DNA of 64,000 nucleotides, from positions 1 to 64,000 of the forward strand of contig NIVC01001760.1 of NCBI GenBank assembly GCA_002269645.1, read 5' to 3'. The DNA comes from Macrostomum lignano. Lineage: Eukaryota. The translations under genes and the position numbers were made by a program. Under the pieces are notes generated by a model, which saw nothing but the letters and a program-made list of their open reading frames with translations, made no database searches and had not been told where the DNA came from. Below, piece after piece: positions 20,621-61,009 of the stretch; position 1 is the first letter of the stretch; each line of letters opens with the position of its first letter.

Positions 20621-22045
20621 ATAGCAATCATAAATGATAATAAAGGCCAAATAATGTAGCTCTCAGTACAAAACTTAAATTTGAGCTGCAAAGCCCAGTG
20701 AGCCTTCATTCGTATTCCTTGTCGCAAGAGGAAGAGACACTGGCAATAAAACTCCCCACAATACTGGGCAGACTGGCTGCATCAGATAACGATGGGAAAC
20801 GGTGGCCAGGTGATGCCCGGCCGAGATAAACTCAGCTGGGAGTCTTATTGGGGAACAATGGCAGTGGCATGGGAAAACGGAGAATGCATTAGCAAATGTT
20901 ACAAAACAGCTCTGGCAATATTTGATACATGCGCACAGAAATATTTTCTCAATTCAATTGGCAGAATCTTCGGCCGAGTCGCACCAGTCTCCGGCAAAAA
21001 AGACAAAGCAACACCACCACCAGCAGCACCAGCAGCCGGCGTTGCCATTCTCCATCGAGAGGCTGACTGGCGACCCGGAGCTCGCGTCGGCAATGCAGCG
21101 GCAGTCGGCTGCGCTCTCCTTTCCCAGGCCGCCGCCTCCGCCGCACCTGCCGCACCTGCCGCACCTGCCGCCGCCGCCACCGCCGAAAGCCGGCCTGCAC
21201 TGGCCGTACAACTCGGAGCTGCACAGCCAGCAGCACTCGCCAATGTTCGCCGCAGCCTCGGCGGCCGAGCAGCGCTGCCGAGAATTCGGCCACCCGCCCG
21301 TCCTGCCGCCGCCTGTGCCGCCGATTCCGCCGGCGCACTTCAACGACCAAGCGGCCGCGGCGGCGGCGGCGGCAGCGGCGGCGGCATCACTGTTTCCCTG
21401 CGGCCGGCCGCCCATCCTGCCGCTGCCGCTGCTCACCCAGCTGTACGCCAGCAGCATGGGCCTCCTCAACCTGCCGCTGTGGCCGCAACCGCCGCCGCGC
21501 CGCCGTCTCATTCAGTGGCGCCACCGCTGCCGGCTGTTCCATCGGCTTCGCCGAGGTCAAGCCAGCAGGCGCCGCACCAGCTGCCGCCGCCGCCGTCGAT
21601 GCCGCCGCAGCCTCTGCCGGCACATAACAGCGGTCAGCATCGCCGTGCCGCTGCCATGGCGAGCCCGACTGGCCCCGCGGCCGCAGCGGCGTTGGCGGCG
21701 GCGGCTGCTGCTGCAGCCTCCACTTCGTCTGGAGCTTCGCTGTCAAGCAGCCTCCGCTGATTGCAGCACGCGCAGCTGCGGCGCCGGCGGCCGCTGTCGA
21801 GTCCCCGTCGAGCGGTCGACCTCGGCACAATCGGCGTCGCGACGCTGGCGCCTCGCCGTCGAACGCGAGCAGCGAGGACGCACCGGTGCAGCACTGGCCT
21901 TCAGGCCCAGGGCGAACACGATCCGTCGGTCTTGCAGCAGTGGTCGGACAACGGGACATTCTAGACGCAGGCAACGTACGCGAGTTCGGCCGCTGCCACG
22001 AAGGTGACGCGGACGCACACGGGCGAGCGGCCTTTGCGACCTGAT
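20621..22045 (+). other. Second, truncated and indel-rich copy of Blimp-1 intron 2/exon 3 start; probable assembly chimera (empty haplotype)
   Basis: 20621-21886 matches 28965-30238. 21887-22045 is a deletion-riddled mosaic that still retains GCGGACGCACACGGGCGAGCGGCC from zinc finger 1. Confidence 0.8.
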
Positions 22046-22944
22046 TGCGCGACGGCTCACGGGGGAGACACCCTGGACCGTGTCGGCCGGTCGTACTTGC
22101 TCGGGGTCGACACCCGTTAACTCTTCGGTCGCCAAGTCGCGCTGGGCCGTCAGCGGAGTCTGCGAAAGGTGCGGCCCGTCACTCCCCTCCTCCGGGCGCC
22201 GCGCGAGGCCAGGATCCACTAAGAGAGACAGACCCCGGAGCCTCCCCAACAAGGGACCCCCCAACTCACACAGCTCAAAACCCCGCACAGCCAACAACAC
22301 GCACTCAAACGCCGCCTGCAGCACCGAAGGCGGGACCCTCCGACACCTCCCGGAACCACCACCAGAACCTCTCTTCCGCCCATACTGATTGCACAGAAAC
22401 GACACAGACACTGCTAAGAATCTAGACAACTGCTCAGGCACACTCACACCAGCCCCATCAAGAAACCTCGCCACCTCCTGAACCACCAGGCAAGCTCCTT
22501 CACTATCCCCAGCCCTCAACCGCGCCAGCAGCGCACCCCTCAGCCGCCTACACTCAGCAAGCGCAGCCGGAGCCAATAACTCGGCTGGGATCTCCGCGTG
22601 AACTGGAGCTTCCCCTGCGGCGCTTCCCTTAAGACTAGCCAAAGCTAACCTGACCTGCTCGGGCAACTCAACGTCAGGGGGAGGATTGAAAAAGTAGGCG
22701 TACTTTAACACCCCTTGACACGCTGCCTCCCAACCCGATCGTATACTTCCCGAAACACTGGGTCAGATAAAACGCACATCGCCATCACGTCTCGCTGAGA
22801 CTCCGGAGACTCTACCTCGGCAGGACAGACGCGGGGCCGCTTTGAGTACAGACGACTACACGCTGCCTCAATCTCCGCAGAGTTAGCAGTCCGACCCACG
22901 CCTAACACGCCATACAAATCAGTCGGTGTCGTTGGCGACGACAT
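22045..22944 (-). CDS. E1 ORF3: J-like domain (no HPD) plus conserved unknown helical domain; one frame break near 22711-22714; 3' end lost in mosaic
   Basis: DLYGVLGVGRTANSAEIEAA..LSDPVFREVYDRVG (J-domain helices). Adding one G to a G4 run joins it to ORF 21743-22711, which aligns by eye to E2 ORF3. Confidence 0.75.
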
Positions 22945-23281: not shown

Positions 23282-26200
23282 TTAACGATACAATACCGGA
23301 TTCCCGTAATACGCTGGGGGCACACCCCGACGCTCGCGCAGTCTGCGCGGAGACACGGCTGGCGCCGCTGGAGCCACCGGTGCGCATGGCGCAACTGGCG
23401 TTCCCGGCCCTACTATCCCATGCCGAGGCCCAACGGCAACTGGTGGCACCACATACGAGTAAAACTCCTCCTCCTCCTCAAGTTCCGGCTCTTTAGTCGC
23501 CGGCCCCGCGGGCTCCTGTCTGCACCCTGCCGGCTCAGGCGGATGCGCCGACCGGCGCTGCACTGCCGTATGCCTATTCATCAACCTGAACTGCTCAGGC
23601 CGCTCGGGTACTTTTCGCAAATTATTATAATGCACTATTTTGCTCTTTCCCCTATTGGCGTGCTTTACCCGGTAATTCAAATCGGATATCTTCTCTAACA
23701 CCTTCGCCGGCCCCTTCCAATTGCAATGGAACTTGGCTGCCTCCCCTGCCTGCAGCGCAGGCGAGTATTCTAGGACGGCATCCCCAACTTCTATGGCCGG
23801 GCCTCGCACCCTTGAGTCGTACAGCACTTTCTGTTTCCTCTGGTACTGCTGCAGGTTGGTCCGCACCTGCGAATGAGCCTCAGCCAGACTATTACCTAAT
23901 GACTGAACATACGCCGGAGCACTGGCAGGAATGGACTCAGGCAAGGTTCCAATGTCCACTGGAAGCCGCATCTCCCTGGCGTACAGCATGTAGTACGGGG
24001 TGTACCCCGTGCCTCTGTGAACGCTGCTACGGTACGCCATGAGAGACGGGTGGATCAGATCCTCCCAGTCTCCTTCGCCCACCGACTCACTCATCCTGCA
24101 CTTGATCATTGACTTCAACGTCTTATTGAAACTCTCAGCCTGACCATCAGCCATCGGGTGATAGGAGGACGTTCTGCATTTCTTAACGGCAAGCAACCGA
24201 CACAACTGCTTCATCAAAGCCGACTCAAAATTGGTGCCCTTATCGGTGACTAGAAATTCAGGACAACCAAAGTGCGCAATCCAGTGATCAAAAATCGCTC
24301 GCGCCACCGTCGGGGCTCGCTGATTCGACAAGGGCACCGCCACCGGCCACTTAGTAAAAGAATCCTGGATTGTCAGCACGAATCGATTGCCACCTCTGGA
24401 CTTGGGCAACGGCCCGACAATGTCACTCATGATCCTCTGGAAAGCTCCTTCCGAGCAGATTGGCTGCAAAGGCGCCCGGTTGCTGCGCCCAGGCTTCGCC
24501 TTCGCACAGTGGACACAGCTCCGGCAATACTCTTCCACGGAACGACTCAGCCCCGGCCACCAGTATCTCGCCTTCACTTTCTCTTGTGTCTTCCTAACCC
24601 CAAGGTGCCCTCCTGCAACCCCATCATGAAGCTCACTGAGCACTTTCGGCAGCAAAGCCGGCGGCAGCAAGATCTTTTTCTGGCACCCACTCCCGGGACT
24701 CTGAAAATACAACAGATCAGACTCTACTCTTATCAGCTGCCGTTGTGCCCACAGCACACGCTCCTCCCACGACATCACTCTAGGCGCACTGGGGTTCGAA
24801 CCCGGGTCCAGGGCATAGGAGCGGACAGCTGCAAGCTTCTTCTCGGCCACTTGCGCCTGCTGGACTTCCTTCGAAGACAGCCCACTGCCAAACACCGCGT
24901 TCACTACTGGCACATTCTCGCTAAACTGGCAGCTAGGGCAGCTCTCATGGCCAGCGTGTTTTCGGTACTTGCGAGACAGCGAATCAGCGTTGCCGTGCTC
25001 CTTGCCTGGCCTGTGAATGATCTCAAAGTCGAAGTTCTGGAGCGACTCAAGCCACCTTGCGCACTGACCCTCTACGTCCTTCAGACTGGCTAGCCACTGC
25101 AAAGCTTTGTGGTCTGAACGAACAGTGAACTTTCTACCTAACAAATAGTACCTATACTTTTTGACGAAGTGCACGACGGCAAGCAACTCTAACCTGGTGG
25201 TGCAATAATTTTTCTCCGCCGCATGAATCATCCTAGACCCGTAAGCGATCACCTTCTCACGGCCATCTGCTTGACGCTGTGACAGGACGGCTCCCAGCCC
25301 GACGCGCGAACTGGCGTCCGTGTCGAGGATGAACTCCCCGGCACCAGGCGAAAAATCCGGGAATGCCATCACATTCGGTGAACACAAAGCGTCTTTCAGC
25401 CTGCAAAACGAGCTCTCCTCTTCACTACCCCACTCAAACTTCACTCCGTCTGCGGTTAACCTATACAGCGGCGCTGCAATCTCTGAAAACTGCGGGATAA
25501 ATGACTGATAGTAGGCGCACGTACCCAGGAATGCCTGCACCTTCTTGGCGCTACATGGCCTCGGCCAATTCTGGATCTCCTCGCACTTGCTCGGATCCGT
25601 TGCGATCCCCTCCTGAGAGACGATGTGGCCCAGAAACTTCACCCGCTCTGCGAGGAACACACACTTGGCGGGCTTCAGCTTGACATTGGCATCCCTCAGG
25701 CACTGGAAAACATGCTTCAATCGCTCGAGATGCTGACCCACCGACTTGGCGAACACGACTATATCGTCAAAGTACACCAGGCACTCCTTCCAGTTAACCT
25801 CAGACAGGGCCATAGACATTAGCCTGGCGAACGTAGCGGGAGCATTGCGCAAGCCAAAACTCATGCACTTCCAGGCGAACTGACCCCTGTTGGGTACCAC
25901 GAACGCCGTTTTCAACTGGTCCTTCGGCTCAATCGGGCACTGATGATAGCCGGAGGCCAGATCCATCGTCGAGAAAACACAGTTCCCTCCTAGCGCATCA
26001 AGCGTCTCGTCCATCCGCGGCGGTGGGTAAGGATCTGGCACTGTGACCTCGTTAAGGCGCCGATAGTCTAGACACAACCTCAAGCTACCGTCGGCCTTTT
26101 TAACCGGCACGATCGGGCTCGCCCACGGAGAGTAGCAGGGATAGATGCGATCCTGCTGCAACAACTCATCAACCTGCTTATCAATTTCCTCCTTCCAGCG

Positions 26201-27218
26201 CGGTGGAATCCTACGCGCGGGCTGACTTACTGGCTTGGCGTTGCCGGTGTCAATCTCATGCGCCATCAAGTGTGACTGTCCCAACTCCGAGCTATCCCTG
26301 GCAAAGACATCACGATTCCGAGCCATCAGGCGCTCAAACTCGTGCTTCTCATCGCCCGTCAGGCCACATCCTCCCCACTCCTTGACATCGCTGAGGGGGT
26401 TCCAGTCGTCTCGGACACTCTCCACCGAGTTCACCTGCCACCCAGCTGGCTGCTGGGCCGCCACTGGGGAGAACCAACCAATTCGGCTTCCCTTCCTTAA
26501 TGACAGACTGCATCCTGACGTGTTCAACACCCTGACAGCCAAGCGACCGTCCCCGTCAGGCATCTGTACCGATCTGGCCACCATCTGCTCGTTACTCACT
26601 CTCCTCTCAGACTCCACAATGCCTAGGAACTGAACCCCAGAGGGAACCCTTCTCTGCAACCTGACGTGCACCACCTTCTCTTGACCTGCATTGAACTGCT
26701 CAGGCTGACTCAGCACCAGACGGCAAAGACGCGGCTTATCTGCTGATAAGCGAAACGGATACACACAGGATGCAGTCTGCAAGCAATTCCTAGCAAAGTC
26801 AATCGCCATCCGTGTCTCACGAAAAAGTCAGTGCCCAGAATACATGCCACAGCCAGTTCCTCGACCACAGCGAACTCGTGCAAAAACTCGGTGTCCCCAA
26901 CAGAAAACTTCATCGTCACCATTCCATGTACAGCAATCGGTTCCCCATTGGCAGCGAAAACGGAAAAATTCGGCAAATTCGGCAATAAGTCAATGTCGGC
27001 TTTTTTAGACTTCAGGAAACGGTTGCTTAACAACGACACGGTGGCCCCGCTGTCAAGCAGACATGCAATCGGGGGCCCAAACCTAAACTGTGCATCCACA
27101 TAGCCCAGTCCCTGCCGACTCAGCACACTCTGGGACAAGGCCGCGGCCCCCGATGCACCCGGATTCACTGACGCTGGGGCCCGGACGGGTGCCCCGGCCG
27201 AGCCCCAATCCGTTTCCC
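23282..27218 (-). CDS. pol: E1 pro-pol (aspartic protease, RT, RNase H, integrase) via -1 frameshift; one further 1-bp break near 26810
   Basis: LLDSGA protease, YFDD RT, DAS RNase H, HHCC zinc site plus DDE core (DIVGP/DKGTNF/E), WKGPAKV GPY/F-like motif. Confidence 0.96.
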
Positions 27219-28144
27219 GAACCCGACTGGTCCCACCGACGATAGCAGCGGTTGCGCATGTGCCCTGACTGGCCACACTCCCGGCAGACCACTGCATTAC
27301 GGCACCGAGCCGTAGTATGCCCTGTCTGCAGGCACCGACCACACTGCCTCTGCTGCTGACTCTGCTCAGGGGCTCGATGCTGCAAGCTCACTTTTGGCTG
27401 CTCAGACCTTGCTGTCGCCATCGGCGCAGTGGGCGCTGCAGCACTTGCTTTTAGCTGAGCCACTTCCGCTTTCAGAGCTGCTATCTCGGCGGCTGCCCTG
27501 GACTCCTGGCTGTTGCCAGCCGCTGCGGCCTGACCCCCCACCATGTGCACAGCTCGCTTGCCCTCGGGCTCCATCAGAGCCAACGATGCCCTCACTTGAC
27601 GCACCCGCCTAATAGCGTCCTGGAGCGTCTCTGGCGCTTGCAGCAGCACGCTCTCCAGCACCCGGGCTGGCACCCGAATCCCCTTCAAAAACCTGTCTTT
27701 CACCAACTCTTCTCGCTGGGCCGCTGGCAGCATTGGGTACGATTTTCTCATAAGCTCCTTGAGCACGTCTGCATATTCTTCAATGGGCTCGCCATCTTTC
27801 TGATTCCTACTCTGGAACTCGGTCTTGTAATCTTGAGCAGTCCTATTCTCATCAAACCTAGCCTCTAGCTGCTCAACAAACTCATCATACGGCAAATCAT
27901 CGGCCAACTCAAGATTCGCAACAGCCTTAAAAGCAGTATTAAAGTCAAGCAGACTGAGCAGCGCCTGCTTGCGCTGATCCCCTAGAATATGAGCCGCCTC
28001 ACAATACCCTGTGAATTGTTGCATCCAAAGGGCAAAGTCCTGTGTGGGCACGTACTTATTTGGCCTCGGCACCCGCTGTGCCACATTAAGTTCGTTTTGC
28101 AGACGCGCCGTCAGGGCGTCAATCAGATCGTCTAAATTGGCCAT
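27083..28144 (-). CDS. gag: E1 Gag, 353 aa from ATG 28144, two CCHC zinc knuckles
   Basis: CGRCLQTGHTTARC and CRECGQSGHMRNRC; capsid-like YADVLKELMRKSYP..RFLKGI. Confidence 0.93.
   Translation of the reverse strand: MANLDDLIDALTARLQNELNVAQRVPRPNKYVPTQDFALWMQQFTGYCEAAHILGDQRKQALLSLLDFNTAFKAVANLELADDLPYDEFVEQLEARFDENRTAQDYKTEFQSRNQKDGEPIEEYADVLKELMRKSYPMLPAAQREELVKDRFLKGIRVPARVLESVLLQAPETLQDAIRRVRQVRASLALMEPEGKRAVHMVGGQAAAAGNSQESRAAAEIAALKAEVAQLKASAAAPTAPMATARSEQPKVSLQHRAPEQSQQQRQCGRCLQTGHTTARCRNAVVCRECGQSGHMRNRCYRRWDQSGSGNGLGLGRGTRPGPSVSESGCIGGRGLVPECAESAGTGLCGCTV
27212..27218 (-). other. -1 ribosomal frameshift slippery heptamer G GGA AAC (E1)
   Basis: In gag phase (TCG GGA AAC), pol lies in the -1 frame, downstream GGGGCUCGG/CCGGGCCCC stem. 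Confidence 0.8.
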
Positions 28145-28248: not shown

Positions 28249-28266
28249 ATCCTGGTCACGGCACCA
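28249..28266 (-). other. E1 primer-binding site complementary to tRNA-His 3' end
   Basis: TGGTGCCGTGACCAGGAT, 2 nt from the LTR end; matches the known tRNA-His-type PBS. Confidence 0.85.
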
Positions 28267-28268
28267 CT

Positions 28269-28964
28269 TGTTGTGTCTCGGCCTAATGGCCGCTGGACGG
28301 GTCAAGGTTCGGGCCCTCCCCGCCTGAGACACCCCGGTCCCAGCCCTCACCCCGGCTATTCCTACCCTGTCTCGCTCGGTTCGGCGAGAGTTCGCCTGAC
28401 CGAACACCCTGGGATCGGCGAGAGTTCACCGTTCCCAGGTCCCTGCAGATCCCGGCCCCACGCGGCAACCCAGAAGAACGAAAGCTCGAGCTCACCTCCT
28501 CTTGATATATCGAGTTACTAACGAAGCGTTTATTGGCCCGAAGCAGTTATTGGCACGCGAAGGCAGAGGTACGCCGATGAACGCAAAAACAGTAAGAACG
28601 AAGCGGACACCAATAGAGAGCAAACGTGGAGCGCAGCCCGCTCAGGGCTAGCATTTAAATAATACACAAAAAAGGGGGAGGGGTGGGGCAGAATGGAGAC
28701 GGCGAGCCAAACCCTGGGCCCAGCCGGCTTATCAGCCAGCCAGCCAATACGAGCAGCCCAGGGTGAGGCGGGCAACGAGGGAGGGGGGCACCCAGATTGG
28801 ACAGAGATTGGGCCGGGGGCTGGGTGCAAAGGGCTAGGCCAGGGTTGAGACTTACGCCTCTCACAAACCCTGGCCCGGGCGCGAGACGGGGGACGGGGCG
28901 GGGTGGCATGAAAACTGAAAACAAAAGTACGAGTACATACACACTGGAAGGGCGCAGCCCAACA
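28269..28964 (-). repeat. E1 5' LTR (696 bp)
   Basis: Ends TGTTG...CAACA. PBS adjacent on the inner side; host intron sequence resumes exactly at 28965. Confidence 0.85.
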
Positions 28965-29320
28965 ATAGCAATCATAAATGATAATAAAGGCCAAATAGTG
29001 TAGCTCTCAGTACAAAACTTAAATTTGAGCTGCAAAGCCCAGTGAGCCTTCATTCGTAAATCGTAGTTCCTTGTCGCAAGAGGAAGAGACACTGGCAATA
29101 AAACTCCCCACAATACCTGGGCAGACTGGCTGCATCAGATAACGATGGGAAACGGTGGCCAGGTGATGCCCGGCCGAGATAAAACTCAGCTGGGAGTCTT
29201 ATTGGGGAACAATGGCAGTGGCATGGGAAAAACGGAGAATGCATTAGCAAATGTTACAAAACAGCTCTGGCAATATTTGATACATGCGCACAGAAATATT
29301 TTCTCAATTCAACTTGGCAG

Positions 29321-31005
29321 AATCTTCGGCCGAGTCGCACCAGTCTCCGGCAAAAAAGACAAAGCAACACCACCACCAGCAGCACCAGCAGCCGGCGTTG
29401 CCATTCTCCATCGAGAGGCTGACTGGCGACCCGGAGCTCGCGTCGGCAATGCAGCGGCAGTCGGCTGCGCTCTCCTTTCCCAGGCCGCCGCCTCCGCCGC
29501 ACCTGCCGCACCTGCCGCACCTGCCGCCGCCGCCACCGCCGAAAGCCGGCCTGCACTGGCCGTACAACTCGGAGCTGCACAGCCAGCAGCACTCGCCAAT
29601 GTTCGCCGCAGCCTCGGCGGCCGAGCAGCGCTGCCGAGAGTTCGGCCACCCGCCCGTCCTGCCGCCGCCTGTGCCGCCGATTCCGCCGGCGCACTTCAAC
29701 GACCAAGCGGCCGCGGCGGCGGCGGCGGCAGCGGCGGCGGCATCACTGTTTCCCTGCGGCCGGCCGCCCATCCTGCCGCTGCCGCTGCTCACCCAGCTGT
29801 ACGCCAGCAGCATGGGCCTCCTCAACCTGCCGCTGTGGCCGCAACCGCCGCCGCCGCCGTCTCATTCAGTGGCGCCACCGCTGCCGGCTGTTCCATCGGC
29901 TTCGCCGAGGTCAAGCCAGCAGGCGCCGCACCAGCTGCCGCCGCCGCCGTCGATGCCGCCGCAGCCTCTGCCGGCACATAACAGCGGTCAGCATCGCCGC
30001 GCCGCTGCCATGGCGAGCCCGACTGGCCCCGCGGCCGCAGCGGCGTTGGCGGCGGCGGCTGCTGCTGCAGCCTCCACTTCATCTGGAGCTTCGCTGTCTC
30101 AGCCTCCGCTGATTGCAGCACCCGCAGCAGCGGCGCCGGCGGCCGCTGTCGAGTCCCCGTCGAGCGGTCGACCTCGGCACAATCGGCGTCGCGACGCTGG
30201 CGCCTCGCCGTCGAACGCGAGCAGCGAGGACGCACCGGCTGGCGGAGGCGGCGGCCGCGGGAGCCACGCGCTGCCGTACCCGCTGCGCAAGAAGGACGGC
30301 AAGATGCACTACGAGTGCAACGTCTGCCTCAAGAGCTTCGGCCAGCTGTCCAACCTGAAGGTGCACCTGCGGACGCACACGGGCGAGCGGCCGTTCAAAT
30401 GCGACCTGTGCGACAAAGGCTTCACCCAGCTGGCGCACCTGCAGAAGCACAACCTGGTGCACACCGGGGAGAAGCCGCACGCCTGCTACGTCTGCCACAA
30501 GCGGTTCAGCAGCACCAGCAACCTGAAGACGCACATGCGGCTGCACAGCGGCGAAAAGCCGTTCAGCTGCAAACTGTGCCCAGCCAAGTTCACCCAGTTT
30601 GTGCACCTCAAGCTGCACAAGCGGCTGCACACCAACGAGCGACCGTTCGAGTGCCCGAAGTGCTGCAAAAAGTACATCAGCGCCAGCGGCCTGAAAACGC
30701 ATTGGCGCTCCGGTCCCTGCTTTGGCAGCGAGTTGGCCACGGATTTGAATTCCATTCTGAACTCGATTGTCACGGACAGCAGCCTGGACAGCAGGGACAG
30801 CATCGAGTTCCGCTGCGAGGAACAGTACACCGAGGATGAGGCGGCTGCGGCGGCGGAGGCTGCGGCGGACGAAGTCGAAGACGATGAGGAGGCCGAAGCG
30901 GATGCTGATGAGGCCTACGTTGAGGTTGAGGAAGTTGAGGATTCTGCGGCAGGCGATGAAGCTGACTCGGTGATGGAGCAGCGGTTGGAAACTGCGAACG
31001 CTTGA
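29321..31005 (+). CDS. PRDM1: Blimp-1/PRDM1 exon 3: Pro/Ala-rich repression region, five zinc fingers, acidic tail, stop
   Basis: Acceptor TTCAACTTGGCAG|AA completes the phase-1 codon (GAA). [42 protein letters not shown].. is the Blimp-1 signature, and the fifth finger is C2HC (CPKC..HWRSGPC). Confidence 0.97.
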
Positions 31006-52354: not shown

Positions 52355-53187
52355 TGTCATGAATGTGTTATTATGACTGTGTGTACTTTGCTACTTTGCT
52401 ACGCCGGGCCAGTCGGCCGTCCTCTCCCCCCTCCTTAGATATTTTCTGACTCACCCACCTGCACTTCTGCGCGTGCGTACCCCTCCCCTCCCTGCCTAGA
52501 CCTTTTCTGTTGAGTCAAACCCCCCCCATGCTCTGCGTGCGACCCCCCCCTGTGCGACCCCGCCCCATTATTTTGTTAGCTTTGCTGCCCCGCCCCTGTT
52601 TGTGATTGGCTGCCAGTCCCAGTCTGCCGTGCTGCGCCCCGGCGATTGGCTGGTACAGCTCATGCGTTGCCTTGGCTGATGTCTAAGCCCCCTTTTCTGC
52701 CTTTATCCCGCGCCCTCGACCCCCAGTTTGCTGCCTATTTATTCGGCCCCCTTGAGACCCCATTCTCGTCGTCTTCGTGGCTCCTCGGCGATTGTGCCAG
52801 CGTTGGTTGCTGAATTGCTATTCCTCGCAGAATTGCTAGACAAATATATAAGTAAAGAATATCGAGATCACCACTGCTCTGACGGCGCTGTTTCTTGTAC
52901 GACTGAAATCGCGGCTGGTAAGCCTTCCAATTTGTACGTCATTTGGGTCTGCATCTGTACTAGGCACCTTAGAGGGATTAAGTGCGTCGTACGCCGGTCC
53001 CACCCCAAGCAGCTCTGCGTCGTACGCGAGTCTGTAGGCTGTCGTGCGTCGTACGCTCGAGCAGCCTAGTCCCGACGGACACCGCGTCGTACGCGTGTCA
53101 GTGGAGGACCGCAGCCAGGGTCAGTACACGAACCCGGGTCTGGGAAAGGGGCACGAAAGGACCGAGCCCTTGAGCCCCATCATCACA
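52355..53187 (+). repeat. E2 5' LTR (833 bp)
   Basis: Matches 60174-61009 apart from the length of two C homopolymers. Contains two TGATTGGCT (reverse CCAAT) boxes and TATATAA. Confidence 0.98.
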
Positions 53188-53190
53188 AAT

Positions 53191-53207
53191 TGGCATCCTT
53201 GGTGGGA
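53191..53207 (+). other. E2 primer-binding site (TGGCATCCTTGGTGGGA); primer tRNA not determined, Arg- or Asn-like
   Basis: TGG start 3 nt after the LTR; the reverse complement ends in G-CCA like a tRNA 3' end. Confidence 0.7.
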
Positions 53208-53295
53208 CCCTGCGCTGTGGAAGACTAAGCAAGGAAGAAAGCTCGAGGCGCGGAATATTGTGAGAAATTAAGGTTAGAAACTGTGACGCCGTGGT

Positions 53296-54372
53296 ATGGA
53301 TGCTGGAGGTGCTGCTGGAGGTGCTGCTGGAGGTGCGGCTGGAGGTGCGGCTGGAGGTGCGGCTGGAGGTGCGGCTGGAGGTGCTGCTGGAGGTGCTGCT
53401 GGAGCCTTTGGTGTTAATGATCTGGTCGCCGCCTTGACTGCCCAGATTCAGCAGAACATGCAGCAAGCGGGTGCCCTCAGGATTCAGAGGCCGGTGAAGT
53501 ATGCTCCAGGAATGAATTTCGTGAAGTGGTTGAGGCTCTTCGTAGCTTATTGCGATGCCATGCAGATTCCGATGCAGAATCGGCGCGCTCAGTTGCTCAG
53601 CAACCTAGACTTCAGCACCTTCCAAGTTGTTGACAACATGAACCTTGGGGACGACTTGCAGTTCGAAGAATTTACCCAGGCCTTGAGGGATAGGTTCACT
53701 ATGCACCGTACCGTCGTCGACTACCGCACAGAACTGAGCAATAGAGAGCAGAGTGAGAAGGAGTCGGTAGAAGATTTCTCTGAAGCTGTGATTGAGTTGG
53801 TCGCAAACGCCTTTCCTGATGCGCCTGCCGATGTGCGCGATGATCTTGCGAAAGAGCGATTTATGCGAGGCGTCCGTGCGGGGGTGGCTGTGCGGGAGCG
53901 ACTGTACATGAGCCAGCCGGAGACGTTAGCGGACGCAATGCGTCTGGTGCATCAGCTGGAAGCGGCGGTTAGGGCAAGTCATGGTCCACCAGGTCAGGTA
54001 TCGAAAAGAACCGTTTGTGCTGTTACGACCGAGACCAGAAAGGAGGCTTCCGAAAGCAGTGAGGTCGAGATGCTTCGAAAACAGCTGGCGGCCATGGAGA
54101 TGCGAATGAAAGAGATGGAGGAGCGGAGGTCTGAAGAAGCGGCAGAGCCGACCCCGGCGAGTCGGAAGGCTGTGCAGTGTTTTTCGTGTCGAGAGTGGGG
54201 CCATATCTCATCAAAGTGTCCGAAGAAGACCAGTCAGAAGAGTGAAAACGGGAAATCGCCAGTACGATGTCACAAGTGCAACGGTGAAGGCCACCTATCC
54301 TTCAAGTGTCCGAAGTCGGGAAACGGGCCGAGGGGACCGACCGGGGAGAGTCGGGACCCTGCCAGGAAGTGA
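53296..54372 (+). CDS. gag: E2 Gag, 358 aa, N-terminal (AGGA)n repeat and two CCHC knuckles
   Basis: CFSCREWGHISSKC and CHKCNGEGHLSFKC; N-terminal domain homologous to E1 Gag (DL..ALTA..Q..RP.KY.P..F..W...F..YC.A). Confidence 0.95.
   Translation: MDAGGAAGGAAGGAAGGAAGGAAGGAAGGAAGGAAGAFGVNDLVAALTAQIQQNMQQAGALRIQRPVKYAPGMNFVKWLRLFVAYCDAMQIPMQNRRAQLLSNLDFSTFQVVDNMNLGDDLQFEEFTQALRDRFTMHRTVVDYRTELSNREQSEKESVEDFSEAVIELVANAFPDAPADVRDDLAKERFMRGVRAGVAVRERLYMSQPETLADAMRLVHQLEAAVRASHGPPGQVSKRTVCAVTTETRKEASESSEVEMLRKQLAAMEMRMKEMEERRSEEAAEPTPASRKAVQCFSCREWGHISSKCPKKTSQKSENGKSPVRCHKCNGEGHLSFKCPKSGNGPRGPTGESRDPARK
54318..54324 (+). other. -1 ribosomal frameshift slippery heptamer G GGA AAC (E2)
   Basis: In gag phase, pol in the -1 frame, downstream AGGG-GA-CCGAC/GTCGG-GA-CCCT hairpin. 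Confidence 0.82.
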
Positions 54373-57300
54373 AGTCTCCCAGGAGCGAGGAACCGGGGTT
54401 GCTCACTAACTCTGTAAATAAATCCAAGTGCGTCTCTGGTGATGGGAATTCAAAGAGCAACCTGGTTCATGAGGCGTGTTCGTCGGTATCAACGGAGCCT
54501 CTGACAGTTTTTATTTCCGGTGCGGTTTCCGGCAAGCCAGTGGCTCTGCTGTTAGACAGTGGTGCGAGTGTGTCAGTGCTGAGCTGTGATGTTTTCCTGA
54601 GGCTGCCGCAAGAGGTGAGGGAGAGACTGACTGCAATGGACGGTTCCCTTTCAACGGCCAATGGAGGTGCGATGAGGATGAGAGGCTGCATTGTGCTGGA
54701 CGTGGAGATTGGCGGCGAGCGGTGGTCAGCGAATTTCTTCGTAGTGGACGGATTACGTTATGATGTCATTCTCGGGTCCGAATTTTTCAAACAGCATCGT
54801 TGCGTCATCAACTATTCAGAGTTTGTCTTTCGAGTGGGCGATGTTAGAGTTCCGATACGGCAGAAAGGCGAGCTGCCCGTGGTGTGTCGAATCAAAGCCG
54901 AGACAACGGTATTTCTGGAACCGGCGCAAGAAGTGATCATGCCAGCCAGGGTAGAGAAAAAGGGCGCAAGAAACTGCGGATCGGTCGGCATAACGGAAGA
55001 AAAGCCGGTGAAGGCCGCTGAGAAGGATTTGGCGCTGGCTCGAGCTCTGGTAGCGCCCGGCGTGGATGGACGGCTGCCGATGAGATTGCTGAATACGTCC
55101 AGTTGTAGGAAGAGGGTCAAGAAAGGAGAGACGATTGGCTGGTTTATTCCTTTGGAACCGAACGGAGGTATCAACGTGGTGCGCTTGGACGACGACGTAG
55201 AGGCCAAGAATGAAGCGGAGGCATGGGACCCGATCGAAGAATTCCGCGAGTGGGGTTCGTGTGGCCTGTCGGAGGAGGAGGAAGCCGACTTCAGGGAGCT
55301 GATTTCCCAACATCGGGCTGTCTTTGCTAAGGACTCCAAGGATCTCGGCGGTACGACGGTGATGAAGCACGAGATCGACACTGGAGATGCCAGGCCTGTG
55401 AAAGAGGCGGCGAGGCGGATTCCCCCTTACCTGCGGCAGGAAGTGGACAAGGAGTTGGATGACTTGCTGGAAGCTGGGAGAATCAGCGAGGTTCAGTCCC
55501 CATGGTGCTCTCCGGTGGTGTGCGTGAAAAAGAAGGACGGTTCCCTGAGGTTCTGTTGTGACTACCGGAAACTGAATGAAGTGACCAAGAAGGATGCAGT
55601 GCCGTTGCCCAGGACAGATGACCTGTTGGAGAGCCTAGGCGGTGCCAAGATTTTTTCGACCATGGACATGCAGTCGGGATACTGGCAGATGGCGGTGGAA
55701 CCCAGCGACAGACTGAAGACGGCCTTTGGCGTTTCACACCGGGTACAGCAGTACGCCTGGAACGTTATGCCATTTGGATTGACAAATGCACCGGCTTCAT
55801 TCAGCCGGCTAATGAATGTGGTGTTGGGGAAGTTGTGCTGGAAGACGTGTTTGGTGTATCTGGACGACCTGCTAGTGTGGTCACGAACGGTAGAAGAGCA
55901 CCTGGAACGGTTGCAAACGGTTTTTCGACGGTTGCGAGCAGCGAACATCAAACTGAAGCCGAAGAAGTGCGCATTCCTGCTGAAGTCAGTGACCTTCCTG
56001 GGACACGTAGTGTCAGCTGATGGGATCGCCACGAGTCCAGAAAAGATTGCCGAAATTCGTGACTGGCCAACTCCGAGGAATGTGAAGGAAGTAAGGTCAT
56101 TCCTGGGACTGTGCGGGTATTACCGGCAATTCATCGCAGATTTTTCCCGCATTGCTGAGCCGATGCTGCGACGGACCCGACATGATTGCCCGTGGAGCTG
56201 GGATGAGGAGTGTCAAGCCGCATTCGAGGCCCTGAAGGAAAGGTTGCAGGGATCTGAGGTCATGGCGTTTCCAAACTTTGCGGAGGACGCTGGAGAATTC
56301 GTTTTAGACACAGACGGTAGCACAAAAGAAGGAATTGGCGCTGTGCTTTCGCAGGTGCAGAAAGATGGGAGTGAGAAGGTAATAGCTTACGGAAGCAGGA
56401 CGTTGTCGCGAGAAGAACGGAATTACTGCACGACACGAGTCGAGTTGCTGGCCGTGGTGTTTTTCGTACAGAAGTTTCGTTATTACCTGATGGGGCGAGA
56501 GTTTCTAGTGCGCACCGATCACAGCAGCTTGAAGTGGCTGCATTCGCTGCGGGACGTAGAAGGACAACTGGCCAGATGGCTGGAACTCTTGGCTCCGTAC
56601 AGGTATCGCATCGAACATCGTCCGGGAGTGAAACATCAACACGCGGACGCTCTCTCCAGGAAGCCACGTCGGCGCCATCAAGGAAGCGAGAGTTGTCCTG
56701 GATGTGCACAAGAGCAGATCGGCGTGAACGCGTTGGGATTGCAGAAGTGGACCTCGGAGGAGATCAGAGAGAGCCAGAAGATGGACAGCGACATTCGTCA
56801 GGCGATGGAGCTGCTGGCTCACAGCGACGGAGAGATAACCGAAGAGCATTTGCGGCGCATATCACCGACGGCAAGGAGGATTGTCGAAAGACGTCGTGAC
56901 CTTGAGGTGTCGGACAGTGAGGTGTTGCTGTGTCATACGGCCAGTAGACGTCAGCCGCAAGTGGTGTTGCCACGGAATATGCTGAGAGCGGTGCTGGAAG
57001 AAGCTCATGGTGGACGGAGTGGAGGGCACGTTGGGATTTTCAAGACCAAGGAGAAGGTGCGGCAATCGTTTTGGTGGCCGGGACTTGGCCGCGAGGTCGA
57101 AGAGCACGTAAAAGCCTGTTTGGACTGCACCAAGGCCAAAGCTGGCAAGAAACCAATTGCACCGATGGAGCCGATTCCGAGTTCAAGCCCATTCGATATC
57201 GTGATGACGGACGTCATCGGGCCGCTGCCACGGAGCAAGAAAGGAAACTTCTACATCCTCACGGTGCAAGATGCGTTCTCAAAGTGGCCTGACGCTTATG

Positions 57301-58514
57301 CCATCCGGAACCAGAAGTCGGCAACGATCGCAAGGGTGCTATTCGAACGCTGGATTGCCAATCACGGGTGCCCCCGGGTACTTCACTCAGACCAAGGAAG
57401 GAACTTTGAGTCGGGGATCGTCAGGAAGCTGTGCGAGCTGTTGGGTGTGAAGAAGACCAGGACGAGCGCCTACCACCCGAGTGGCAACGGACAGGTGGAA
57501 CGATTTAACGGGTTCCTGAAGAACAGTTTGCGCACGTATCTGGTACAGAAGGGTCAGAACGCCTGGGAGGAGTACCTGCCAAGTGCCTTGATGGCTTATC
57601 GATCGACGGTCCAGGCGTCCACCGGTTACACGCCCTACTACATGCTGCATGGTCAGGAGATGCCGCTGGGATTCGAACCAGAGGACCTTAGGCGAAAGAC
57701 GGACAGCTATCCCTTGTTTGTGCAAGAGATCCAGCAGAACCTGCTTCATGCCCATGAACGCATTCGAGAAGGACGCGAGACGGTTCAGCGACGGCAGAAA
57801 ATGAATTACGATCGGAAAGTAAAGGGCAAAGCGATTCAGAAGGGCGACTCTGTCTTGCTGTACTATCCGTGCTTGGAGATGGGAGAGAAAAGCAAGTTCC
57901 ATATCAACTGGCGCGGCCCAGTGAAGGTCCTGGAGAAGCTGTCAGATGCGTTGTACCGAGTGCAGGATCCGACACAGCCGCAGAAGACCAAGGTGGTGCA
58001 CTTCAACAATCTCCGGCCGGTTCAGGGCCAGACGGAGGCGGCAGACGGTCAAGAGACTAGAGAGGAAATTGGGAGGGCCAGTTCGGGAAAAACCAGGCCG
58101 CGACGTGATAATTCCACTGCTGGACGAAGCCGAAGGCAGAGAGTGCAACGGGGCGAGACCCAGAGGTGGACCGCAGCGCGAGGGCCGCAGGACCAGGAAT
58201 CCGAGCAGGAAGATGAAGAGTTTGAAGATCTTCAGCTGCGGTTTCAAGATCCAAGAGATCACGCTCCACCGGACACCCGAAATCTGGCCGAAGACTGTGA
58301 GCCCGGACCTGAGCGTCGAGAAGCAGACGATGACGAAGAAGAGCACGACGATGAGTCGCGGTACGACGAGGAGCAGGACGAAGAGGATGAGGCAGAGCCG
58401 AACGACGCCAACGTACCCGAGCAGGAAGTGAGGACGGCACAGGAGGAAGCAGGGCGACCAAGACGTCTGCGGCGACCGCCAGATCGGTTTGGGGTCCCGG
58501 TGTACTACTACTGA
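54318..58514 (+). CDS. pol: E2 pro-pol: protease, RT, RNase H, integrase, long acidic tail; uninterrupted
   Basis: LLDSGA, YLDD, DTDGS, HHCC, DVIGP/DQGRNF/E, WRGPVKV within a 1402-codon open frame. Confidence 0.98.
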   Translation, partial: GKRAEGTDRGESGPCQEVKSPRSEEPGLLTNSVNKSKCVSGDGNSKSNLVHEACSSVSTEPLTVFISGAVSGKPVALLLDSGASVSVLSCDVFLRLPQEVRERLTAMDGSLSTANGGAMRMRGCIVLDVEIGGERWSANFFVVDGLRYDVILGSEFFKQHRCVINYSEFVFRVGDVRVPIRQKGELPVVCRIKAETTVFLEPAQEVIMPARVEKKGARNCGSVGITEEKPVKAAEKDLALARALVAPGVDGRLPMRLLNTSSCRKRVKKGETIGWFIPLEPNGGINVVRLDDDVEAKNEAEAWDPIEEFREWGSCGLSEEEEADFRELISQHRAVFAKDSKDLGGTTVMKHEIDTGDARPVKEAARRIPPYLRQEVDKELDDLLEAGRISEVQSPWCSPVVCVKKKDGSLRFCCDYRKLNEVTKKDAVPLPRTDDLLESLGGAKIFSTMDMQSGYWQMAVEPSDRLKTAFGVSHRVQQYAWNVMPFGLTNAPASFSRLMNVVLGKLCWKTCLVYLDDLLVWSRTVEEHLERLQTVFRRLRAANIKLKPKKCAFLLKSVTFLGHVVSADGIATSPEKIAEIRDWPTPRNVKEVRSFLGLCGYYRQFIADFSRIAEPMLRRTRHDCPWSWDEECQAAFEALKERLQGSEVMAFPNFAEDAGEFVLDTDGSTKEGIGAVLSQVQKDGSEKVIAYGSRTLSREERNYCTTRVELLAVVFFVQKFRYYLMGREFLVRTDHSSLKWLHSLRDVEGQLARWLELLAPYRYRIEHRPGVKHQHADALSRKPRRRHQGSESCPGCAQEQIGVNALGLQKWTSEEIRESQKMDSDIRQAMELLAHSDGEITEEHLRRISPTARRIVERRRDLEVSDSEVLLCHTASRRQPQVVLPRNMLRAVLEEAHGGRSGGHVGIFKTKEKVRQSFWWPGLGREVEEHVKACLDCTKAKAGKKPIAPMEPIPSSSPFDIVMTDVIGPLPRSKKGNFYILTVQDAFSKWPDAYAIRNQKSATIARVLFERWIANHGCPRVLHSDQGRNFESGIVRKLCELLGVKKTRTSAYHPSGNGQVERFNGFLKNSLRTYLVQKGQNAWEEYLPSALMAYRSTVQASTGYTPYYMLHGQEMPLGFEPEDLRRKTDSYPLFVQEIQQNLLHAHERIREGRETVQRRQKMNYDRKVKGKAIQKGDSVLLYYPCLEMGEKSKFHINWRGPVKVLEKLSDALYRVQDPTQPQKTKVVHFNNLRPVQGQTEAADGQETREEIGRASSGKTRPRRDNSTAGRSRRQRVQRGETQRWTAARGPQDQESEQEDEEFEDLQLRFQDPRDHAPPDTRNLAEDCEPGPERREADDDEEEHDDESRYDEEQDEEDEAEPNDANVPEQEVRTAQEEAGRPRRLRRPPDRFGVPVYYY

Positions 58515-58613: not shown

Positions 58614-59599
58614 ATGGCGGACCTCTACGAGTGTCTTGGAGTGCAGCTGTGGGCGTCTGCGGCACAGATTCGGAAAGCGTTCTACGGTCGAGCACGCGAA
58701 CTGCACCCTGACAAGAGCGCAACAGAGGAGACGCGAAGAGATTCCAGGAGTGCGAAGAGGCGTACCGAATACTGTCGTGTCCGTTCCTTAGAAAGCTGTA
58801 CGATATCTTTGGAAATGCTGTTCGTGACCGGGATGAGATGCTTCGGCTCGCAGAAGGGATGTTAGAGGATGAAGACATGCCCGACGATCTCCGAGAAGAG
58901 ATAGAAAGACTACAAGAGAGCGACCGATTAGCTGAGGAGGCGTACGAGAGAGAACAGGCGAGGAGGGATGAGGAGCACGTCAAGATGGAGGCAAGTGAGG
59001 AGGCCTCAGACGATGAGCAGGACGAAGAGATGAACGAGGCGAGTGAGACACTGCCGGAGGAGTACGAGGTCGAGAAGGTCTTAGGAGTACGAGTCACGGA
59101 GCGAGGAGCGGAGTATCTGCTGCAGTGGGCCGGTGTAGAGGAGCTTGAGACGTCATGGGAAGCGGAGGAAGATTGTGCCGGATGTAGAAACCTGATTGAA
59201 GAATATCTGCAGAGAGCGTACCGGCTTCAGACAAGACCGTGCCGACCAGTGACCGTCGCGGAACTGGAGAACGTAGGACCCAGTCGGAAGAAACTGCACC
59301 AGGCAATGCGGAAGGGCGACCCGTGGGGCATCTTTGAGGTGCTGCTAGCCCTGAAGGGGAAGTGCGCCACTGCCTTGGTGGATTTCAAGGAATTCGGTCC
59401 GGAGTTGATGCTGCAAATCCTGGGCTACTTGGAGCGAGACGGTCGCAAGTATCCGGGGCACGGAGTTCGTCGGTGGAGTCGCCAAGCGTGTCAAGCTGTC
59501 TACATGTCGGTGATGGTGGTGTTCCCGCTGTTCGACCTGCGACGCCAGGGTTTGGTCCTGGGTGCCCTCCGTAGGCTGTGGGATTCGTGCTCTGACTGA
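58614..59599 (+). CDS. E2 ORF3: DnaJ domain (HPD), acidic linker, chromodomain, unknown helical domain; ~328 aa with a 1-bp break near 58735-58741
   Basis: MADLYECLGV..IRKAFYGRARELHPDK, then in the other frame FQECEEAYRILSCPFLRKLYDIFG; EYEVEKVL..EYLLQWAG..TSWEAEEDC..LIEEY chromodomain at about 59060-59209. Confidence 0.88.
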
Positions 59600-60173: not shown

Positions 60174-61009
60174 TGTCATGAATGTGTTATTATGACTGTG
60201 TGTACTTTGCTACTTTGCTACGCCGGGCCAGTCGGCCGTCCTCTCCCCCCTCCTTAGATATTTTCTGACTCACCCACCTGCACTTCTGCGCGTGCGTACC
60301 CCTCCCCTCCCTGCCTAGACCTTTTCTGTTGAGTCAAACCCCCCCCCCATGCTCTGCGTGCGACCCCCCCCCTGTGCGACCCCGCCCCATTATTTTGTTA
60401 GCTTTGCTGCCCCGCCCCTGTTTGTGATTGGCTGCCAGTCCCAGTCTGCCGTGCTGCGCCCCGGCGATTGGCTGGTACAGCTCATGCGTTGCCTTGGCTG
60501 ATGTCTAAGCCCCCTTTTCTGCCTTTATCCCGCGCCCTCGACCCCCAGTTTGCTGCCTATTTATTCGGCCCCCTTGAGACCCCATTCTCGTCGTCTTCGT
60601 GGCTCCTCGGCGATTGTGCCAGCGTTGGTTGCTGAATTGCTATTCCTCGCAGAATTGCTAGACAAATATATAAGTAAAGAATATCGAGATCACCACTGCT
60701 CTGACGGCGCTGTTTCTTGTACGACTGAAATCGCGGCTGGTAAGCCTTCCAATTTGTACGTCATTTGGGTCTGCATCTGTACTAGGCACCTTAGAGGGAT
60801 TAAGTGCGTCGTACGCCGGTCCCACCCCAAGCAGCTCTGCGTCGTACGCGAGTCTGTAGGCTGTCGTGCGTCGTACGCTCGAGCAGCCTAGTCCCGACGG
60901 ACACCGCGTCGTACGCGTGTCAGTGGAGGACCGCAGCCAGGGTCAGTACACGAACCCGGGTCTGGGAAAGGGGCACGAAAGGACCGAGCCCTTGAGCCCC
61001 ATCATCACA
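60174..61009 (+). repeat. E2 3' LTR (836 bp)
   Basis: Direct repeat of 52355-53187. Confidence 0.98.

Follow-up and report, generated by a model that had tools for sequence, protein, structure and literature searches.

A J-domain protein with an unclassified basic domain in a lineage of Ty3/Gypsy retrotransposons of Macrostomum lignano

We report that one lineage of Ty3/Gypsy LTR retrotransposons in the flatworm Macrostomum lignano carries, after pol, a third open reading frame (ORF3) whose core is a J domain, usually an acidic linker, and a basic domain of ~110 aa, here called X. Sequence comparison supported the view that ORF3 was inherited with the lineage, is old, and is under purifying selection. 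It may be the first retrotransposon-encoded Hsp70 co-chaperone, in which a new nucleic-acid-binding domain and swappable readers would aim Hsp70 at silencing complexes and dismantle them; we propose this tentatively, at somewhat under an even chance.

Two elements in the window and their unbroken relatives

The window was the stretch of 64,000 nucleotides at the start of a contig of M. lignano (NIVC01001760.1:1-64000), and the genome searched was 764 Mb long and repeat-rich. The window holds two Gypsy elements, E1 on the minus strand and E2 on the plus strand. In both, gag is followed by protease, reverse transcriptase, RNase H and integrase (PR-RT-RH-IN), the order characteristic of Ty3/Gypsy LTR retrotransposons. 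E2 is complete, with paired LTRs, a primer binding site, and a 4-bp target-site duplication that sits in an 18-bp tandem repeat. Of the E1 LTRs, the window contains the 5ʹ one but no 3ʹ one, and the element is cut off inside ORF3 near 22024. The features of the two elements were as follows.

28269..28964, minus strand: E1 5ʹ LTR, with a candidate splice donor after base 28496 (motif match only)
27083..28144, minus strand: E1 gag, Retrotrans_gag-like, with a CCHC knuckle
23282..27387, minus strand: E1 protease-RT-RNase H-integrase; in the window copy the frame shifts downstream of the protease
22729..22944, minus strand: beginning of E1 ORF3 with a J-like domain that lacks HPD (PF00226 E=4.9e-5, short of the cut-off); an AG acceptor motif precedes the ATG by 7 nt, and a frameshift lies near the end of the J-like part
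22229..22555, minus strand: E1 domain X (held-out profiles 17.1-25.3 bits)
21869..22228, minus strand: remainder of E1 ORF3, broken off near 22024; other copies run on into a TatD-like domain
52355..53187, plus strand: E2 5ʹ LTR, with a candidate splice donor after base 52917
53296..54372, plus strand: E2 gag
54288..58514, plus strand: E2 pol (PR-RT-RH-IN), a single open frame, integrase without chromodomain match
58614..58820, plus strand: E2 ORF3 start and J domain with HPD, with AG directly before the ATG and a frameshift near 58730 in the window copy
58877..59056, plus strand: E2 post-J helix and acidic linker (35 D+E vs 13 R+K in the linker)
59057..59215, plus strand: E2 chromodomain of HP1/Swi6 type (PF00385 E=1.4e-12)
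59279..59596, plus strand: E2 domain X (family structure model pLDDT 91)
60174..61009, plus strand: E2 3ʹ LTR, 99.4% identical to the 5ʹ LTR

On either side of E1 lies a copy (20621-21886 and 28965-30238, 98.2% identical) of a host exon region coding for C2H2 zinc fingers (frame 29281-31005). The duplicate stands in place of the E1 3ʹ end, by tandem duplication or misassembly.

Both ORF3s in the window are frameshifted, that of E2 near 58730 and that of E1 near 22730. Unbroken frames were found in 17/28 loci of the E2 family (326-328 aa) and in 10/21 loci of the E1 family (558-562 aa); since the assembly is redundant, these locus counts are not insertion counts. The E2 frameshift is shared by one other copy, L001. 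It was absent from the assembled copy L004, which has the same 3ʹ flank, and from the contigs of 4/4 runs, so an assembly error or a very recent event is likely.

The unbroken E2 ORF3 (328 aa) encodes J, acidic linker, chromodomain and X in this order, and that of E1 (558 aa) a J-like domain without HPD, X, and a TatD-like domain. The motifs quoted for the two ORF3s in the first-pass annotation were all present and colinear, at the positions where it had placed them. It had called X the C-terminal domain, a label that does not suit the unbroken E1 copies, where the TatD-like domain comes after X. Further families in the genome were of the types J-acidic-X (F3, F4, F4b, F6 and F9), J-chromo-X (F5), and J-X-TatD with HPD (F7 and F8), along with cut-down forms. 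The conserved protein family proposed from E1 and E2 thus holds for the common core of J and X but not as a uniform architecture, because a chromodomain or TatD-like parts were added and some subfamilies lost or shortened ORF3.

F5 (locus L056, contig C455) looks like a mosaic relative to E2: gag-pol is 92-93% identical, the J region 68%, and the second half of X with the region downstream 91%. ORF3 parts are exchanged between subfamilies. A multi-copy subfamily with an F7-like RT (L105, L117-L119) retains just the final two thirds of a TatD part of F8 type and has neither J nor X. In F11, the sister of E1, a GC-rich post-pol stretch with frames of 200-250 codons (L106:4600-5350; L108, L120 and L122) gave no match to J, X or TatD, and it is possibly a replacement ORF3. 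The subfamilies without ORF3 (F11 and F3b) or with TatD only are still multi-copy. Primer binding sites in the clade, compared at 28249-28266 (E1) and 53191-53208 (E2) of the window and at loci L123, L079, L084, L091 and L077, were of three types: one in E1, F7, F8 and F9, another in F3 and F6, and a third in E2.

Homology, descent and selection of ORF3

One explanation of the likeness between E1 and E2 is that host DnaJ genes were captured separately by the two, or that their ORF3s are carried along neutrally, with X similar by chance. The direct local alignment of X would fit it, as the result was marginal (score 37, z=2.3, with 168/5000 shuffles reaching the score). Global alignment of the two X domains gave z=4.0 (17/5000 shuffles), and alignment of E1 ORF3 residues 1-245 with the whole E2 ORF3 gave z=6.6 (0/2000 shuffles). 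A profile built from five other families, with E1 held out, gave E1 X 17.1 bits, where the best of 5000 shuffles reached 8.1. When each of 15 X sequences was left out in turn and its near relatives were also removed, E1 reached 25.3 bits against a shuffle maximum of 8.9, and 15/15 members beat all 1000 shuffles. The homology claimed for the two ORF3s was borne out by these held-out profiles, and it reaches further families.

The RT tree contained 36 rows, namely 27 that formed one clade (support 97/97), the 7 nearest outgroups and two more distant rows; the outgroups were all from the M. lignano genome, where 150 of 4123 RT candidates were scored. The clade holds all J-X carriers and comprises six deep lineages, each with such carriers. 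Fourteen of its 27 members have J and/or X, 2 have TatD only, 5 have a post-pol region without match (F11 and F3b), and the remaining 6 are truncated or at contig ends. J, X or TatD was found in 0/7 of the nearest outgroup elements. All carriers of ORF3 therefore fall in one clade, as expected if the protein belongs to the lineage, though some clade members lost it. The clade may be the Gmr1/Osvaldo cluster, a guess made on a tree of M. lignano RTs only. Clusters of the LTR elements of this species are given in PMC12801592.

Within the clade, the TatD carriers formed one RT subclade (100/99), in which ORF3-less F11 was included. Separate trees of J and X both recovered E1+F7+F8 (95/95 and 99/97), as the RT tree does, and deeper forks of the ORF3 trees were unsupported.

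The dN/dS ratio of ORF3 was 0.08-0.34 in 16/18 comparisons, the other 2/18 being saturated; several dS values exceeded 1.6, near saturation, and are imprecise. Its upper bootstrap bound was below 1 in 15 of the 16 measurable comparisons. By domain, the ratio was 0.08-0.22 for X, 0.13 for TatD and 0.21 for the chromodomain, and two measurable RT controls gave 0.03 and 0.06. E1 ORF3, without HPD, gave 0.29-0.34 in three non-independent comparisons. One RT clade, a congruent subclade of J, X and RT, and dN/dS well below 1 upheld the earlier suggestion that ORF3 is an old, selected component of the lineage. Separate captures, neutral passengers or chance similarity are hardly credible: the profiles made without the tested member, the agreement between the trees and the low dN/dS all speak against them, and the X matches examined in the genome lay in element-type ORF3s. 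Short of a host gene with J and X outside the elements, we count this explanation as already refuted.

Domains and expression of ORF3

PF00226 matched above its cut-off in E2, F3, F4 and F5, with E=4.7e-16 in an unbroken natural copy of E2, and Foldseek gave J-domain structures with rmsd 1-3. The HPD motif was present in 12/13 aligned J domains, E1 alone being without it. With a J fold and HPD (12/13), ORF3 is, as predicted from its sequence, a class C J-domain protein, and the J-like domain of E1 would fit type IV. HPD is required for Hsp70 stimulation (review PMC13254874).

Two J matches were rejected as separate cases. The antisense match in L098/L124 was spurious, the sense strand carrying a J relic. 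The J fragment of L089, considered as a second capture, is a piece of F3 type; between it and a distant pol lie that element's LTR and other DNA. In the PF00226 scan of the genome, many of the 150 scored matches coincided with element ORF3 copies, not host genes, and public gene models fuse element ORF3s with their neighbours (database proteins P0003 and P0013). This is a warning for annotation, many "DnaJ genes" of the M. lignano genome being element cargo. A single frame of 1449 codons at L086:726-5072 opens with an HPD J domain (3/150 among the DnaJ matches listed); no relation to the elements was found with the probes used.

Domain X has a pI of 9.5-12.0 in 15/15 members and an Arg-rich loop. 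Its AlphaFold model contains five helices (pLDDT 91), and in the model of the full ORF3 protein J and X are separate folded modules joined by a disordered linker (pTM 0.46). NCBIfam gave 0 families for 6 X-bearing members, and in Pfam no family beyond DnaJ matched more than 1/15 members. HMMER over 1.84 billion representative proteins found X in just 7 clusters, of which one is an M. lignano gene model, four are Logan proteins and two are JGI/IMG proteins. The proteins of these clusters were 25-80% identical where measured and read as J-X proteins or fragments; the M. lignano database protein is identical to the unbroken E2 ORF3. Two word-based database searches added only M. lignano models. 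The first-pass annotation had suggested that the ~110-aa domain may be new, and these searches, in which neither Pfam nor NCBIfam gave a significant family and HMMER so few clusters, agree with it. We conclude that X is, by sequence criteria, an unclassified domain almost without relatives in protein databases. Through the Logan and JGI/IMG proteins, the family may extend to other species. Architecture would link database proteins P0002 and P0004-P0008 to retrotransposons; metagenome scans gave nothing for P0008 and only J-domain matches for P0006 (48/48 loci).

In sequence, X was unrelated to any solved chain, the PDB matches being J domains and one designed protein. When the X model was compared by Foldseek with PDB and viral libraries, no match reached E<=0.001. 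Among 48161 chains compared by VIA, M-Sec ranked best (Z 8.6, rmsd 3.8, 118 aligned), and four-helix bundles of the B12-cap type reached Z 7.1-7.7 (rmsd 2.4, 79 aligned). All these fold matches are within the range of generic bundles, and fold novelty does not follow from them.

The E2 chromodomain was closest to HP1/Swi6, with PDB matches to Swi6 (1.8e-10) and CBX5 (1.1e-9). At the positions of the aromatic cage, two of three residues are kept in E2, the third position not being aromatic, and three of three in its relative F5. No chromodomain fused to the integrase C-terminus was found, and neither E1 nor E2 pol had a Chromo match. The TatD-like part matched PF01026 (35.7 bits vs a cut-off of 27) and YjjV in PDB (4.6e-8), with 12/12 PDB matches belonging to the TatD family. 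Judged against host TatD fragments and the N-terminal TatD motif, only the central Glu is kept of the metal-binding and catalytic His/Glu/Asp residues, plus one N-terminal His in F7/F8. Because most metal ligands are lost and the part is nonetheless under selection, it is likely a binding module. A host donor was not found in the genome at E<=0.01; in a small search, the best host TatD fragment had 27% identity and E=0.001.

Sequence motifs around ORF3 suggest how it may be expressed. AG stands directly before the ORF3 ATG in E2, F5, F4, F4b, F6 and the L098 relic; F9 has it 1 nt before the ATG, E1 7 nt and F3 16 nt. By lineage, it lies 0-1 nt before the ORF3 start in 5/7. The background before other ATGs in E2 was 18/110 directly and 24/110 within 1 nt. 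A GT[AG]AG donor motif was present in the 3ʹ half of 8/8 carrier LTRs; it was also present in the LTR of ORF3-less F11 and in one of the two outgroup LTRs that could be delimited. In F7 and F8, the ORF3 start has AG followed by TG, with no ATG of its own, and the donor is preceded by A, thus a splice would create the start codon. No splice joint was listed in contigs of the four runs covering E2 and crossing the acceptor, contigs in which rare forms and short ends are dropped. From the conservation of both motifs, donor and acceptor, we predict that ORF3 may be expressed from a spliced mRNA.

The LTR of F3 (L123:440-485; L151-L172) carries the 35-letter M. lignano spliced leader up to letter 33, without the terminal AUG, and shares upstream letters with some loci resembling SL-RNA genes. 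The leader sequence is published in PMC8629364. Among 86 loci matching the leader, 30 were examined: 18 were F3 LTRs, 8 were SL RNA gene-like, and 4 were other copies. The F3 LTR may itself encode a mimic of the leader where its RNA begins.

Possible function and relation to known systems

Our favoured reading, held at just short of an even chance, is that the J domain recruits host Hsp70 and X holds ORF3 on nucleic-acid-bound complexes of the element, most likely loosening silencing. A short mRNA would be spliced from the donor in the 5ʹ LTR to the acceptor at the ORF3 start, and ORF3 would be translated from it. The HPD-bearing J domain would stimulate Hsp70, as class C J proteins do, the Arg-rich loop and helices of X would bind DNA or RNA, and the acidic linker would serve as a spacer or charge mimic. 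The HP1-type chromodomain and the catalytically stripped TatD barrel would be extra addressing modules for chromatin or nucleic acid, and the repressive complex would be stripped or remodelled by Hsp70. In this scheme E1, as a derived form of type IV that is blind to Hsp70, would still bind but not stimulate. Nucleic-acid binding by X is suggested by its charge, and silencing as the target is a guess. Several features suggest an adaptor aiming Hsp70 at nucleic-acid complexes: HPD is retained, X is basic, the two independent add-ons are modules for the nucleus or nucleic acid, evolution is fast although constrained, and some subfamilies do without ORF3. Since purifying selection also acts on E1, which has no HPD, Hsp70 stimulation cannot be the whole function.

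J and X are the invariant core across all six lineages and X is basic, which would equally suit a co-chaperone of replication, with X binding element RNA or cDNA in the particle and Hsp70 aiding Gag assembly, RT activation or uncoating. Hepadnavirus RT has chaperone needs. The J domain of SV40 T-antigen serves replication (PMC13254874). Such a role is nevertheless unlikely, though to be taken seriously: ORF3 is missing in multi-copy subfamilies (help in trans would be possible), a chromodomain has no obvious use in a cytoplasmic particle, and HPD is lost in E1. That some subfamilies are multi-copy without ORF3 would suit an accessory gene of counter-defence more than one needed for a core step.

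The HP1-type chromodomain of E2 and F5, together with the insertion of the window E2 in a tandem repeat, raised another explanation, that ORF3 is a detached adaptor for integration targeting: X would bind integrase or cDNA ends, and the chromodomain or TatD barrel would read the target site, as in chromoviruses. We compared insertion sites, with tandem repeat as a proxy for heterochromatin, small n, duplicates merged, and 5/59 loci without an LTR end. Tandem-repeat sites made up 5/17 in E2 vs 8/44 in three chromodomain-less families (Fisher p=0.49), and mean repeat cover of the flanks was 0.23-0.24 in all four families. We consider integration targeting very improbable.

Manipulation of the stress response, in which ORF3 would occupy Hsp70 and thereby free heat shock factor or disturb Hsp70-dependent small-RNA loading, has a precedent in the phage J protein Rki (PMC13254874 and PMC3486835), and some heat-induced LTR families exist in M. 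lignano (PMC12801592). A canonical heat shock element was found in 0/13 LTR-containing regions scanned in the clade, and the conserved basic domain and the add-ons would be left unexplained, so that this explanation appears rather improbable.

If the favoured reading, Hsp70 aimed at silencing complexes, is true, ORF3 would be an animal counterpart to viral counter-defence genes. Element-encoded counter-silencing proteins are, to our knowledge, rare in animals. X is compact, confidently predicted and unclassified, and the family varies naturally in having or lacking HPD, the chromodomain, TatD or the entire ORF3. As transgenesis and RNAi are available in M. lignano, such variants make the bearing of Hsp70 on transposon control directly testable.

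ORF3 is apparently undescribed, a variation on the theme of accessory ORF3s with an unclassified domain. No retrotransposon-encoded J protein was found in the literature searched; Repbase and the earlier classification paper of the LTR elements of this species could still mention the domain. The main text of PMC12801592 had 0 matches for DnaJ, chromodomain, TatD or ORF, and the DnaJ-domain rows in its supplement are transcript clusters, none with the chromodomain accession. LTR elements are known to carry accessory ORFs, and viruses to encode J proteins; a retrotransposon lineage with a J protein of its own was not met with in the literature searched.

Among known systems, the ORF3s of the bdelloid rotifer elements Juno and Vesta (DEDDy exonuclease and GDSL esterase) are alike in being a third ORF after pol in invertebrate Ty3/Gypsy elements, modular, gained and lost, and there typically spliced, as described in PMC5408684, in which DnaJ and TatD do not occur. 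They differ in being catalytically intact, family-specific enzymes gained repeatedly, whereas the flatworm ORF3 has a J adaptor ancestral to the whole clade and a TatD add-on without most catalytic residues. Chromoviruses likewise encode a chromodomain; theirs is on integrase, while that of E2 and F5 is in a separate ORF, resembles HP1/Swi6 most, is found in one of the six lineages, and goes with no bias in the flanks. Errantivirus env shares the position of a third ORF and likely spliced expression, but ORF3 has neither signal peptide nor transmembrane segment in 6/6 proteins (maximum 19-residue hydropathy 1.04-1.49) and no env family match. VANC of the Arabidopsis VANDAL transposons is alike in the proposed counter-silencing role, a purely functional analogy, and VANDALs are DNA transposons. 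There is also a parallel in parts with viral J proteins such as polyomavirus T antigen and phage Rki, in which a selfish element likewise combines an HPD J domain with a client-binding part; in the text of the J-protein review (PMC13254874), where "transpos" is absent, the hosts of such proteins are DNA viruses and phages, and here it would be a lineage of retrotransposons.
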